A stretch of 64,000 nt of DNA from Eledone cirrhosa (lineage: Eukaryota): positions 57,846,001 to 57,910,000 of the forward strand of contig OZ024742.1 of assembly GCA_964016885.1 (NCBI GenBank), written 5' to 3'. The stretch's first letter is position 1; each line of letters begins with the position of its first letter. Made by a program: the position numbers and the translations under genes. This document shows positions 29,001 to 50,798 of this stretch, piece after piece. Below the pieces are notes generated by a model. That model did no database searches, had not been told where the DNA came from, and saw nothing but the letters and a program-made list of their open reading frames with translations.

Positions 29001-32000
29001 CTTAGTAATGCTTAACTAAATGTTGCAAAGTACATTGCCCAATGCTCTAGCAATTCTGCCATGCTTTAACAATAATAATATAATAGATCCTAGTTTTTAC
29101 AGTTACTTTTCTATATCAGCATGGGTTGGAAAGGACTTTTTGAGGCAATGTTTTACAGCCAGATGTCCTTCATAGTTCTATCACTTTTTGTTACCTTCTA
29201 TGACACAGGGATATGGTATACTTATTCTAAACTGGATACAGTGACATTTATTTTATTGGATCTCCATCATTTCCGAGGAGAGTTCCAGCTGATTTAATCA
29301 ACAGTACTGTCTGTTCATGAAATTAATGTGTAAGTGGCTGAGCATTTCACAAACAAGTGCATAATTAATGAAGTTCTCAGGGAGACACAGCATGGAACAA
29401 TGTAACAAAGCTAGTCTCTTGAATTATAGGTACAAGTCATTTTTACCAGTTGAAATAAAGCATCTTGCTCAAGAATGCAACGCACTGCCCAGTCAAGGAA
29501 ATGAACTCACAACCTTACGATTATGAGCTAAACACTCTAACAACTAAGCCATGCACCTTCACTTTATTACATAACTATAAAATATCAAATGGTATTATAG
29601 AGTTATCAGCTGGCCAGATTGCTCAGATCCCAGCTAGAAAGCTCAAAGTAGAGGTGAGGTTGTTTCCAGTATTACACTTGGTACCTGCAATAGAGAGTAA
29701 ACAATGAATAGTGTGGTCAACCAGTAAGGTAGACACTACATGTTCACTCAAGCTGTTAGGAACAGCAGCTAAATTTCCCTCAAGTCATATCCCACCATCC
29801 TAAAAGGGATGAATACATTGGACAATGTAATCCTAAATCAACAGTCAGGGTTGACCTGAGGTTAATCACCAACAACAACTACACATCCTGCAAACTGGCT
29901 TCCTTTTCAATATCATCATCATTATCATTTTTATATCCACTTTTCCATTCTGACATGGCTTGGATGAGACATTATTTAGGCAGTGTTTACAGCTAGAGGT
30001 CCTTCCTGATGCCAAACATTTTTGTTTATTCAATTAAGGCACTAAACATTGCAAGTCCAACCATTGACCATAAATAAATGCAATGCTGTGCACAAGTGAA
30101 GACACAGAGATAAACACACGCACACATACATATATATGTGTATATGTATTTATTAAAAATTAACCTATAGTTAGAAGCTTCAATGCACATATTTTTTTGA
30201 TTATGAAAAATAGTTTAACAAATTGAGCATAAAAACTCCGGGATCGAAAAAAAGTTGACAGTGTCACCTGTGTGACCAGAAATGAGTTTGAGTTCTATGG
30301 GTGATGCTGTCAATTTTTTTCCATCCAGGAGTTTTTATGCCCAAGTTGTTAGACCAATTTTCATAGTAAAAAAATATGTACATTCATGCTTCTAACTCTA
30401 GGTTAATTTTCAATAAATACATATCTGCTCAAAGTTTCTAAAAATAGACAACCTTTTTTCCATGCTAGCATGGGTTGGACATGTCATTATAGACCAAATC
30501 AGCACTTAGTTGGGGACCCACATCTCATTTACATGCATTCCATCACTTTACAGAGTGCACTGGGTGCATTTTATCACGAACAAGCACTAGAGAGGTTGTC
30601 ACCCCTAAATGCAACTAAAAAGTCGTTTAGACCCTTTGTTTGACAAGGTTTCTATGACAGTACGCTCTTCCTAACATCAACTCCTTTACAAAGTGTACTG
30701 GGTGCATTTTATGGTGGCACCAGCACCAGGCAGGTTGGCTTCCATACAATTTCCATCTAGCAAATTCCTTCACAAAGCATTTGTCAGACTGGGGCCATAT
30801 TAAAAGATAAAGATGCTTAACCTAAGATATCCACTCAGATGGGAAGAAATCGAAGCCAATGTGGTTGTGAAGCAAGCTTCTTAACCACACAGCTATGTCT
30901 ACACCTAATATTACTATCATAACAACAATAAATAAAATAAAACCACATCAGAATACCTTTTTGGGACAAGGGTGACTGTTGAGGGGTAAATTTGCAATCA
31001 TTTCCTGATAAGCAAATTCATCTCTTTCAGTGCACTGAATGACCCCATCAAGAACCAGTACTGTTCCAAATGATTTACTGCAAAGATAAATTTACTTCAT
31101 GTTATCAGTAACACGTTCTTTGATAAAAGTGGAAAACAAATCTATAACAAATCTATCACTTATTTAACTAATTTTAGTAAGACAAAAAAAAAAAAAAAAT
31201 CTATTCATGTAACTTAGCAAACTAAGTTTACATATAGATAAAACTAAAAGCATGTGCTTCACACTTCATTCATTGTCTTCAAACAGGATAATAGAAACTG
31301 GGGTAAAAGTATAGATAATCAGAGAATTATATATATATATATATATATAACCTTTCCTCTTGCTTTATCTTCATAAACTGCCAATGTTTTATTTTTATTT
31401 TTATTTTCATTTTAATCCTTTAACCTTTATATGTAAATTGCCATGCTATATCATTATGATGGATGTCAACCCACTGTGGGTCAATATATGCATATGTTTT
31501 TATATGTCTCTTGTGTTGAAAAGGAGGTCAAGTATGTTATAGATCACTAAATAGTTGCTCTGAAGAATCCAAACCTCGGTTTGGAGGAAACAATTGTAAG
31601 CAAATAAATGATTTAAACTGAACTTTGATTATTGTAATCTCTCTCTCTCTCTCTATATATATATATATATATATATATGTATATATATATATATATATAT
31701 ATATATATATATATATATATATATATATATATATATATATATATATATGTACAAAGTGTTAAAACGATCAAATTTTAATTTAGAACATTTATTAGCTGAC
31801 AATTGTTTCTTCCAGAGGGAAGTCTGGAGTCATCGGAGCATAAGGAATGTCGAAAACATGTAACTAGAATCCTAGTCATTTAGAACATTTAGGGTACATA
31901 ATTGTTATTAGTGTCAAAGGCATCATGTGGAGAGTCAGGAGTTAAAAAGATGTTCCACTTGAAATAACACAATTACAGGCAGCACTGGTTGGAAGTGTAA

Positions 32001-35000
32001 TAGGTAAAAGGTAAAAAGCACAAGCAAAAAAACACAGGCAAAGAAGTTATAAGCAAGGACAATTGGTGTACAATGCAGGAGTCAATAAGGCATGTATGAG
32101 GCACTCTTTCCTCATACATGCCTTATTGACTCCTGCATTGTACACCAATTGTCCTTGCTTATAACTTCTTTGCATGTGGCAACCGATTGGCTACATGTTC
32201 AGAAATTTACATGACGGTAGGAGACGAAATTCTAATAGTTCCGCTCTCGCCATAAGCATGCAAAGAGAGAGAGAGAGAGAGAGAGAGAGAGAGAGAGAGA
32301 GAGAAGAGAGAGAAGTGAGAAAATTATAGCGATATAAAGAGAACTATATTGAGTAAATAAATAGACTTCTGTAGGTGTTAGTGATTATTTTGGTTGTTCG
32401 AATAGCCTACATGTTAAATTAACATGTAAGTGGCTGAGTACACATTACTTTTATAACTATATTATATACTGTGTTGGACGTGTAATGTTACGATACATCA
32501 TCATCATTTAACATCCATTTTCCTTGCCAGCAAGGGTTCGACAGGTTTTCACAGACCGAGTCAGAACTGAAGTGGAGGTGACAGTCCTTATAGACAGCAT
32601 CTCACTTATGTACAATTCCACGTTCTACCGAGTGCATTTAATCAAGGCACTGACACTAGAGTGGTTGTCATGTCTGATACAACTGAATAGTTCTTTCAAC
32701 CCTTTGTTTGGCATGCTTTCTACAGCTGGATGCCCTTCCTATCATCAACCACTTTACAGACTGTACTGGGTGTTTATCGTTGACACAACTAAGCATACAT
32801 ATATACATACACACACATATATATATACACATACATATGATGGTAACATGTATCCCAGTACAACCTGTCCCATGGTCGGGTCGTTGGCGACTAAACTGGC
32901 AACCCCACCAAGGTTTCTTGGTGAGGAGGGTGACTTTGGACATCCTGCAGGACTAAAAACAAAACCTGTCAAAGGAGCTCTTAAGAGTCAATGGCCATCC
33001 AAAATTACCGGGAGAGATGACCCCTTAGCCTTTGTCAAGGCAGAATTCTAGGAGAAGGAAAACTCTGATATAACACCTGCAACCCTGATGGTATCCGATG
33101 ATGTTGACTTGTTCTTCTTTTTGGTAAATATCATCTTGGTTAAGAGAGTGGGACTGGCTTTGTGTAGTGCCTTTGCTCACTATAAATGCTTCACGGCACA
33201 GGCATTGCTTTATATCTGGAGATCTCTCTGCACTTGTCGTCACATGGTACCATGGGCCCAACACTATGTGTCAATAATTGTCACAAGTGTAGTGTTTGTA
33301 CCAGAGTTTTCAAGTCGCTGGCTGGACTAAAAAGTCACACTCGTTCAGCGCATCGGTAGAGGTTCTCCTACATGGATATAAAGTAGTGGCCATACTCGAA
33401 AACGAGTTGGTAGCCACCACATATGATGAAACAAAGTGACACATGTTTAAACTACTTAATTATTGCCCTGCCCTACAAATGTTTTTATATTTGTCAATAT
33501 TATAAGACTTTCTTAATTACTCTCAAATATACTGTGGAAGCCGTTTGTTGCGATAATTTTGGGATGGAGACACTTGTTAATAATCATTTCTATTTTTAGG
33601 CACATGTCAGTCAACTTTTTTCCTTGGGCGGGGGGCGTCGATTAAATCGACCCCAATACTTAACTCTTACTTTATTTTATTGACCCCCAGAAGGATGAAA
33701 GACAATGTTGACCTCCGCGGGATTTGAAAGCAGAACTTAAAAAGCCGGACCAATATTGCTAAGCATTTATCCGATCTAACTACTGTTCAAATAAGCTGTT
33801 AACATAATCACCTTCATTTACATATTTCTAATAAACAACAGTGCCTATAATTTTCAAATAATCAATAATTTGTTGGAGTTTAATTAATATAAGTAACTTA
33901 TTATTAAGCTGCCGTTTGGAATTAAAGGTTCTTGCATAAAATTAGGATGGAAGATTTTTGATAAATATAAACGCTTTAAAAGAGCTAAGTACAGAAAGAG
34001 TTTGGGACCCCTTATTTTTTATAACAATAATCAGTTGATGGCATTTATCTATGATTATAATAAGCGTCTTCCAATGTTTATGTGCTATCTCCACTAAAAG
34101 ATAAGACTAAAGAATGACAGAAGCAACTAATAAATGAATGAATACGTAAAAGAATATTACTCATATATGTACACGTGTATAAAACAAAAAATGGAAAATA
34201 TAAAACGGGATGTTCGTCTATTTATGGGGACTGTTAACTAAAGAATATATATTTTTAAAATTCGTCTTTTAACTTAATCGATTCTTCTTTATAGAACGGC
34301 AAGTTAAGGGAAGTCAAGTATATAACGAATTCAGAAATACATCGCATGAGAAATATGAATGAATAGTATACATATAAAGAGCATGAAATAATGATTTCTT
34401 TATTAGCCACACAGGGCTTATGAAATAATATACAAAAAATAAAACCCTTTATGTTTAATACAACCAAGGAAAGGATAGATAATTTTATAACAATCTAATT
34501 CGGCACTTTACCGCTTCTACTATTCAAATATTAATAACAACAATAATATTATTTTCCTGCAACGTATTGGATTATATAATATATAATAAAATGGATTATA
34601 CAAGAAAAAAAAAAAGATATTATTTTTTAAAATATCTGAAGTTGGAGAATAAACGGTTGCAATGTAAGTTTTACTGTTGTTCTCTAACAGACTTAAGATT
34701 CTTAATTTGAGTTATTTCTCAAAAATCTTTCAACTCCCACAAAGACTTTTGATACGAACCCGGCTAAAACCAGCTCTAGTTCTATCAAACAAAACCACCC
34801 ATTTAAAAGGGTTCCTATTTAAATTGAATTTTTCCAAAATAATTTTATATAAGAACCATGTGTTAAGTTACTATCTTAGTAATTAAATAATTAATAATTT
34901 TAGTCCAGACCTCACAATTAATAGTGTATTTCATCAAAAATACTACCACGGAATTTACTTTCGTGCTTTAATTAACTTTCTGTAATTGGAAAGTAAATAT

Positions 35001-50328: not shown

Positions 50329-50718
50329 AGTTTGCTCAGAAACTGAGATTTAAATTTCAAATTTCATATTTTTCATTTATTATATATTGCCTATTGGTTG
50401 ATTTTTTTTTTTTGCTCCGTTTTTAGTTTACTTTAAAATTTTGGTAAATTCTCTAAGTAATTTATTCACAATTTCGAAGGCAAAAGACAGTTTGAAACAT
50501 AATATAGAAGAAACAGATGAAGCTTGGATATATACATACACATATATATATATACATAGATATTAATATATAAACATATACATATATACATACATATACA
50601 TACATATACACATATACATGCATATATATATATATACAGATATTCATATATAAACATATACATATATACATACATATACATACATATATATGAGACTGGA
50701 TACTTAGATGAGAATAGT

Positions 50719-50798
50719 CTTCCCTGACGACGGAATGTTTCTCCATGTCTTCTTCGGAAAATATATTTACTCCATTCCAGAAACTAATTAGTTGGAAG
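50719..50798 (+). ncRNA. Type I hammerhead ribozyme motif with long stem II loop
   Basis: Stem I cttcc/ggaag; CUGACGA; stem II ggaatg...cattcc; GAAA; palindromic stem III ACUAAUUAGU; GUU. Confidence 0.8.

Follow-up and report, generated by a model that had tools for sequence, protein, structure and literature searches.

The association of hammerhead ribozymes with Penelope-like elements (PLEs) is already published, one Octopus element of the Hydra clade included. In section 11 of Craig et al. (2021, PMC8557442), this clade is defined by an RWK-like motif, DKT, a CxCx5C linker and CxxC/CxH, with no CCHH. The elements described there resemble the families reported here in their C-terminal GIY-YIG domain, their RWK-like, DKT, CxCx5C and CxxC motifs, their (TA)n targets and inverted 5'-truncated arms, and in the canonical type I hammerhead of the pseudo-long terminal repeat (pLTR), which often has a U-U or other mismatch at the base of stem II. 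One of them, Hydra-1_Obim of Octopus bimaculoides, combines a (TA)n preference with a canonical hammerhead. This report concerns six hammerhead motifs in a 64-kb stretch of the 3.0-Gb genome assembly of Eledone cirrhosa (contig OZ024742.1, C3:57846001-57910000). The whole stretch is called the window, and positions are counted from its first base. It is argued, with a probability of about 0.9, that all six are terminal-repeat hammerheads of five TA-targeting retroelement families, likely inserted by a PLE reverse transcriptase (RT) and GIY-YIG endonuclease that copied uncleaved RNA.

The minimal hammerheads (min-HHRs) of metazoan PLEs described by Cervera and de la Pena (2014, PMC4209133) occur, as here, in many families per genome and are mostly solitary, with some opposite-strand pairs 100-700 bp apart, a palindromic stem III and an odd base at the start of stem II, although stem III is longer here (8-16 nucleotides, nt). 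Animal non-LTR retrozymes (Cervera and de la Pena 2020, PMC7229834) are low-GC head-to-tail monomers that lack an open reading frame (ORF) and carry one type I hammerhead each. They are proposed in that paper and in a 2026 preprint by Li, Clavereau and Pollet (10.64898/2026.07.22.740005) to descend from PLE pLTRs, and the outgroups named in the text of the preprint include no cephalopod. For the Poseidon element PAc of Anolis, Frangieh et al. (2024, PMC11167929) describe RT starts at two internal sites that give a 'tail', AT-rich targets and a mainly unprocessed RNA template, all of which have counterparts here. The PAc ribozyme cleaves with protein added, and ribozyme mutants had no effect on insertion in vitro.

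Six type I hammerheads and their conservation

The structure descriptor consisted of stem I, C[U/C]GANGA, stem II, GAAA, stem III, UH and stem I, and in its final form it tolerated an extended stem II and a mismatched 10.1-11.1 pair. It returns exactly the six motifs that a preliminary description of the window had folded by hand (Table 1), compared with a mean of 0.225 matches in 200 dinucleotide shuffles made in 1-kb blocks (at most 1 match at a score of at least 20 and 0 at a score of at least 30). A stricter initial descriptor gave no matches in the window, and the descriptor was loosened after the motifs had been read by hand, so the window test is partly tuned. For this reason, sixty evenly spaced 10-kb stretches (600 kb) of the genome serve as the independent test, and these yielded 33 motifs at a score of at least 24 versus 0.4 in shuffled sequence (38 versus 2.6 without the score cut). 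The core, C3[U/C]GANGA9, G12AAA15 and U16 H17, is present in all six window motifs, with C at position 4 in family A2 and in most copies of family A. A search of the window for a U3-A8 core variant found none. Each motif has three helices with an open stem I. The claim that the motifs lie near (TA)n is correct, as all six are ~20-260 nt upstream of such a tract, and (TA)5 occurs within 250 nt downstream of 31 of the 33 sampled motifs versus 0.19 at random positions. The six are confirmed as genuine type I hammerhead folds that are predicted to cut themselves.

Several sequence families had been suspected, and five (A, A2, B, C and D) are identified. The motifs at 40890 and 41253 belong to the two arms of one fold-back insertion, so that the six motifs represent five insertions. 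The proposal of fold-backs is right for this pair, for the 40456 insertion with its short inverted arm and for A2 with its arm at 32103-32178, but not for 31555 and 31795, where two distinct families meet tail-to-tail in a single TA tract. A and A2 have only ~80 nt in common, at 76-79% identity. Similarly, the palindromic stem III expected of minimal forms is found in three of the five families (A, A2 and D), for which intermolecular duplexes of 8-10 bp are predicted that would fit the dimer cleavage described for metazoan PLE hammerheads. In B and C, stem III is looped and 4-5 bp long, and these hammerheads need not act as dimers.

Copies for the analysis of covariation were gathered by BLAST without a folding filter. 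The core varies by 0.4-2.3% in A, A2, B and D, compared with 4.4-9.3% in unpaired or flanking positions. Compensatory changes occur in stem II of A/A2 (A-U to G-C, 22 versus 55 copies), which share such changes in stem III as well, in stem II of D (G-C to A-U in 8 copies or to U-A in 4, and U-A to G-C in 9) and in stem I of B (A-U to C-G in 3). Many single copies have broken pairs, as expected from decay after insertion, and some broken pairs are common to several copies.

Coding parents of families A, A2 and B

Families A, A2 and B are the pLTR ends of protein-coding Hydra-clade PLEs, the clade being read from protein motifs. In the one family A unit on contig C662, which has a pLTR-ORF-pLTR arrangement, a 797-aa frame and a 1.9-kb 3' untranslated region (UTR) lie between two copies of the hammerhead repeat. 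This unit is ~4.6 kb long, whereas published Hydra elements are generally <3 kb, a tendency rather than a strict criterion (PMC8557442). Among 30 ORF-selected loci of family A, at least 10 have stop-free frames of ~830 aa carrying YRDD, several of them 829-830 aa long, and in 14 a strict hammerhead lies just 5' of the ORF, ~260 nt before the ATG. The protein contains RWR, DKT, CxCx5C, CxxC and CxH. Pfam gave no RT or GIY-YIG match for the family A ORF, the domains of which were assigned from motifs. Family B belongs to a second Hydra ORF, ~42% identical to that of family A and carrying RWR, DKT, CxCx5C and CxxC, and in 13 of 30 loci chosen by ORF the predicted cleavage site precedes the ATG by 135-141 nt. 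Family A2 flanks a third Hydra ORF (locus L331), in whose open frame only YRDD and CxCx5C were seen. All three families have the insertion traits of Hydra-clade PLEs, namely a (TA)n target, 5' truncation, inverted arms and a tail.

A pLTR or retrozyme origin had been proposed for the motifs, and it is supported by the Hydra ORFs of A, A2 and B and by the retrozyme-like organization of C and D (see below). The suggestion that they are ORF-less PLE remnants applies to C and D but not to A, A2 and B, which are 5'-truncated ends of coding Hydra-clade PLEs. The word 'remnants' undersells the material, because three families are coding and one, family A, has stop-free full-length ORFs of 827 aa for RT and GIY-YIG elsewhere in the genome. 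The recommended search for autonomous partners was thus successful for A, for B and, at one locus, for A2. Compared with Hydra-1_Obim, this genome has at least three families, one with many stop-free copies, and the window hammerheads are unlike the sequence listed for that element (PMC8557442).

The window itself holds no PLE ORF detectable by tblastn, in agreement with the preliminary description. The RT ORFs of the window show matches to RVT_1 and resemble long interspersed nuclear elements (LINEs), a PHD finger being present in two. Copies of a LINE encoding RT followed by a PHD finger are found at 17326-18825 (+), 1-1900, 11850-13750 and 44350-48150. A first look at the genome as a whole gave 10,597 GIY-YIG candidates; 150 were scored, and some of these are Neptune-type ORFs with RT and GIY-YIG. 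A link between family B and such ORFs (L101, L105, L107 and L108) was rejected, as B sits in the terminal TA tract of those elements. Other Neptune-type loci carry hammerheads of their own. At L099, L100 and L103 an RT-GIY-YIG ORF is followed ~400 nt later by a compact hammerhead and (TA)n. The U3-A8 variant of the core occurs in the terminal hammerhead of a Neptune-type family at L097 (~6610-6650), L105 and L199 (3597-3632), and a family related to this one (L102, L107 and L110) has a similar fold with GCAA instead of GAAA.

Families C and D

Families C and D fit non-LTR retrozymes that were inserted with PLE hallmarks, judging from their genomic copies. Both are ORF-less head-to-tail monomers of low GC with one type I hammerhead each, as such retrozymes are; the longest ATG ORF is 36 aa in C and 28 aa in D. 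The D monomer is 522 bp (spacing 520-527 bp in many loci), copies extend past two monomers, and locus L045 has three hammerheads in a row. The C monomer is 511 bp and is seen as a permuted junction, with junction spacing of 509-512 bp; no locus with two tandem hammerheads was found among 43 C contexts. Folded as circles and compared with 40 shuffles each, C and D have z scores of -4.3 and -4.1, respectively. No RNA run was listed for the D monomer. In 50 C and 45 D loci with 1.5-kb flanks, nearby PLE ORF pieces were rejected as parents, as they begin mid-gene and differ from locus to locus. The monomers are longer than the usual 150-450 bp of retrozymes (PMC7229834; preprint 10.64898/2026.07.22.740005). 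Unlike the retrozymes of PMC7229834, for which circular RNA is documented, C and D are known from genomic sequence. Most of their copies are dispersed and 5'-truncated, have inverted arms and end at fixed 3' positions next to TA, which is a direct signature of PLE insertion. Another ORF-less tandem, with units of ~459 bp and one hammerhead per unit, lies at L097:7195-7733.

Junctions and the RNA template

Genome-wide searches gave 2303 (A), 1981 (A2), 355 (B), 2213 (C) and 2313 (D) first-look candidates, and since 40 candidates were scored in each search these totals are not copy numbers. In every family the 3' ends fall into two classes adjoining (TA)n, at ~+18 and ~+90 from the cleavage site in B, +58 and ~+178 in D, and +186 and +264 in C. 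The 5' ends are variable, and inverted 5' arms are frequent. Fixed TA-abutting 3' ends and variable 5' ends are described as hallmarks of PLE insertion (PMC8557442). The two ends are ~70-145 nt apart here versus 30-40 in PAc (PMC11167929), and in A and B both precede the ATG.

With queries wholly downstream of the cleavage site, 5' ends at that site were found in 0 of 30 copies of D and 1 of 30 of C, most copies extending far upstream. A pile-up of 5' ends at the cleavage site was therefore rejected for these two families. As the cDNA passes the predicted cleavage site, the template was not a cleaved linear monomer. Family B differs in that ~11 of 30 copies, the window copy included, start no more than a few bases from the beginning of stem I, and TATAAATA, a TATA box, is located 32 nt upstream of stem I. 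Genome-wide, 297 copies of B start at stem I after seven A/T bases. Among the first 100 listed of these, stem I is preceded by G in 50 copies, by T in 22, by C in 19 and by A in 9, whereas in the B element C precedes stem I in 40 of 41; at two internal control positions in family B, G was seen in none of the 100 copies listed for each. A reverse-transcribed cap would give an extra G, as in L1 and other Pol II retrocopies. The extra G, together with the TATA box, suggests a capped and uncleaved template for family B, and the non-templated G is probably, though by no means certainly, the trace of such a cap.

The following scheme accounts best for these observations. In A, B and one A2 locus, the RT-GIY-YIG ORF appears just downstream of a hammerhead that recurs after the 3' UTR. 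By analogy with the Anolis PLE, the endonuclease would nick (TA)n and RT would begin at either of two internal positions of the RNA, both 3' of the ribozyme, which correspond to the long and short 3' ends. The template was uncleaved, multimeric or circular, given that the cDNA crosses the predicted cleavage site. Most copies would stop early, so that the ribozyme is kept and the ORF lost, and the TA tracts left by each insertion would attract the next, giving nested clusters. The family B RNA may be transcribed by Pol II and capped, with the first base of stem I as its start. Self-cleavage of this RNA, 136 nt before the ATG, would strip off a capped leader of 45 nt, and the hammerhead might then be a switch of RNA fate rather than a maker of templates. 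C and D would be non-autonomous retrozymes that borrow the PLE protein.

Alternative explanations

It is nearly as probable as not that circular RNA serves as the template in C and D. In the model of Cervera and de la Pena, multimers are cut, the monomers are ligated into circles by the host, and PLE RT copies the circles. This differs from the interpretation given above only in the nature of the template. C and D are ORF-less, structured, head-to-tail monomers, D copies exceed two monomers, coral, mussel and axolotl are documented to contain circular retrozyme RNAs (PMC7229834), and a circular template should be read through at the cleavage site. Read-through is equally expected from uncleaved multimers, however, the non-templated G of family B and the spacing of its TATA box favour a linear capped RNA, and insertion of PAc in vitro is unaffected by ribozyme mutants (PMC11167929). 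The G itself could instead arise by snap-back or template switching of the cDNA on stem I, with no start of transcription at the ribozyme. This explanation would account for the 64 genomic B copies in which a longer fold-back is joined at stem I, also placing G there, and for the T that precedes G, as predicted, in 29 of 50 G cases. In the remaining 21 of 50, A precedes G, which requires a one-base snap-back, and the TATA box is at the canonical distance. On balance, snap-back is a serious possibility but not the favoured one.

It is also conceivable, though rather unlikely, that the inherited folds are mostly catalytically silent, being kept as protein-binding structures or for positioning the promoter or RT, while the genomic copies are inert debris. 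The low predicted populations of the active fold, the 10.1-11.1 mismatches, the 3-bp stem I of A2, pairs broken in many single copies, and the weak or absent cleavage of metazoan PLE hammerheads (PMC4209133; preprint 10.64898/2026.07.22.740005) are all in keeping with this. Yet 36 sequence clusters retain the exact catalytic core, the UH site and a palindromic stem III, with compensatory changes, and the PAc ribozyme does cleave once protein is added (PMC11167929). Self-cleavage of the Eledone hammerheads would probably be weak or dependent on dimers or protein. Chance folding in AT-rich, hairpin-rich repeat DNA has next to no likelihood and is regarded as refuted. While it would explain why no Rfam model matches at threshold, and while the descriptor was relaxed after the motifs had been seen, it does not accord with the count in the independent 600-kb sample, with the fixed position relative to PLE ORFs or with the covariation.

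Several results weigh against the interpretation of the six motifs as terminal-repeat hammerheads of PLE-inserted families with uncleaved templates. No Rfam hammerhead model matches at threshold, the best being Hammerhead_1 at 13.9 bits versus a cut-off of 34 (E=1) on 31554-31604 (family A). The 10.1-11.1 pair is mismatched in four of the six window motifs. ViennaRNA gives the active fold a probability of 0.0005-0.016, or ~0 for B within its fold-back, in a model that ignores tertiary contacts. In the 2026 Xenopus preprint (10.64898/2026.07.22.740005), one of nine tested retrozyme dimers cleaved. Family C, which lacks divergent copies, has neither compensatory changes nor a contrast between core and flanks (24 copies, all at least 88% identical). 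The link of A2 to an ORF is supported by a single locus, and no parent PLE ORF was linked to C or D in 50 and 45 loci, respectively, within 1.5-kb flanks. A pile-up of starts at the ribozyme is clear in B only and was not seen in the other families with a crude ungapped method and small numbers. In B itself, 386 copies begin a few bases into stem I, as common as stem-I starts, and the 64 fold-back copies count here as well.

The remaining Rfam results are similar. Among the best 150 of 260 matches in the whole window there was no hammerhead, microRNA matches to hairpins and TA repeats being dominant. The C motif at 41253 scored 17.1 with RAGATH-1 versus a threshold of 56.3, no hammerhead row was listed for the D motif at 50719, and the B and A2 motifs were covered by the whole-window scan. 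The preliminary description had named covariance models and covariation among the checks that could refute it; the models, lacking a threshold match, formally speak against the hammerheads, but covariation between subfamilies exists, and for this reason the Rfam negative is uninformative.

Genome-wide density

The density in the 600-kb sample is 55 per Mb (bootstrap 30-85), which corresponds to an estimated ~165,000 motifs (90,000-255,000) genome-wide. The probability of finding at least six in 64 kb is then ~0.23, and that of six in a given 20 kb is ~0.02 before allowing for the choice of the interval in the preliminary description. The high density reported for the window is thus a property of the genome, and the window is ordinary. 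Clustering at 85% identity gave 36 groups over all fetched loci, a biased set, and 14 in the even sample. Schistosoma mansoni may equal this density, and no density record is claimed. Published counts include 126,247 motifs in axolotl and >6,000 in Acropora (PMC7229834), and ~9,000 minimal motifs in Xenopus tropicalis (PMC4209133). The estimate for Eledone is far above that for X. tropicalis and similar to that for axolotl, the genome of which is ~nine times larger, with the reservation that descriptors differ between studies and the counts are not strictly comparable.

Features of the window

Table 1. Hammerheads and the insertions that carry them in the 64-kb window.
Feature	Position	Strand	Details
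Hammerhead A	31555..31603	+	Stem I 5 bp; stem II 8 bp after A-G mismatch; palindromic 8-nt stem III; predicted cut after A31598
Hammerhead A2	31795..31839	-	Stem I 3 bp; C at position 4; palindromic stem III; predicted cut after C31798
Hammerhead B	40456..40506	+	Stem I 6 bp; U-U at 10.1-11.1; stem III 4 bp with 8-nt loop; predicted cut after A40500
Hammerhead C, inverted copy	40890..40971	-	Predicted cut after C40898
Hammerhead C	41253..41334	+	Stem I 8 bp; G-C at 10.1-11.1; stem III 5 bp with 5-nt loop; predicted cut after C41326
Hammerhead D	50719..50798	+	Stem I 5 bp; stem II 6 bp with long insert; palindromic 10-nt stem III; predicted cut after U50793
(TA)n tract, 5' junction of family A insertion	31328..31349		
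Family A, 5'-truncated 3' end (pLTR) of putative Hydra-clade PLE	31348..31642	+	90-97% identity to ORF-flanking pLTRs in L117/L123
(TC)n/(TA)n tract common to A and A2 3' ends	31639..31747		
Family A2, 3' end of second putative Hydra-clade PLE, tail-to-tail with A	31750..32101	-	L331: inverted A2, ORF, A2
A2 insertion, inverted 5' arm (hairpin 32033-32178)	32103..32178	+	
Family B insertion, inverted short arm	40402..40457	-	Terminates at short 3' end beside (TA)n 40386-40403
Family B, ~140-nt pLTR piece of third putative Hydra-clade PLE	40455..40593	+	From first bases of stem I to long 3' end
(TA)n tract separating B and C insertions	40605..40636		
Family C, arm in inverted orientation carrying the long 3' end; permuted 511-bp monomer lacking an ORF	40634..41042	-	
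Family C direct arm with short 3' end, then (TA)n 41469-41482	41041..41468	+	
Family D, 5'-truncated copy of ORF-less 522-bp tandem monomer	50696..50972	+	TA-rich microsatellite either side

Further fold-back repeats, which lack a hammerhead, are present at 30142-30424, 50028-50325 and 22223-22349. Downstream of the D copy, ~7.8 kb of TA/TACA microsatellite with embedded repeats (50950-58740) is followed by a tandem array of ~627-bp units at 98% identity (58744-63392), in which the descriptor detects no hammerhead. Pieces similar to the flank of an A2 locus are located at 52653-52807, 53827-53984 and 63654-63815. An uninterrupted ORF for a Tpt1/TRPT1 tRNA 2'-phosphotransferase at 4032-5117 (-) has approximately four tandem 19-aa repeats before the catalytic domain, and the homologues with the highest identity over the full domain come from Octopus vulgaris (68%), O. 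bimaculoides (67%) and Argonauta (64%), which makes an octopod host likely. A short match to a spermine/spermidine synthase domain at 21313-21765 (-) is probably one exon of a host gene. Two tRNA-like matches just below the Rfam cut-off, at 15694-15751 (-) and 27862-27919 (+), lie within a repeated element and are possibly heads of short interspersed nuclear elements.

Implications

The window itself is ordinary mobile-element debris, and the points that merit follow-up are the scale on which hammerheads occur in this genome and the cap-like junction signature. Neither the scale of hammerheads in cephalopods nor a cap-like or read-through junction signature was found in the literature searched, which did not include subscription papers or preprint supplements. 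The supplements of the 2026 preprint (10.64898/2026.07.22.740005) may list its four invertebrate genomes and counts. Standard annotation of non-coding RNA overlooks nearly all such motifs. In the giant squid, Rfam gave 235 Hammerhead_1 loci (PMC6962438), and the main text of a 2026 repeat annotation of Octopus vulgaris does not mention ribozymes (PMC13282606).

A broader proposal can be put forward only tentatively. The genome may hold ~160,000 intact hammerheads of dozens of families, an axolotl-like load in one-ninth of the genome that is invisible to Rfam, and the junctions may record the copying of capped, uncleaved RNA, the first nucleotide of which is also that of the ribozyme. On this view the hammerhead would act as a self-decapping switch: uncut transcripts would serve as templates and cut ones as messages or waste, and the hammerhead would not be the maker of templates. 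A translational role is testable in light of a 2026 report that viral 5' hammerheads promote cap-independent translation (PMC13725137), although that report is not evidence for such a role here. The families in the genome of Eledone cirrhosa are young and abundant, and they combine stop-free ORFs with matching derivatives that lack an ORF and with junctions in the thousands. Whether the template is capped and uncut or cut and circular could thus be tested by junction counts and the mapping of RNA ends.

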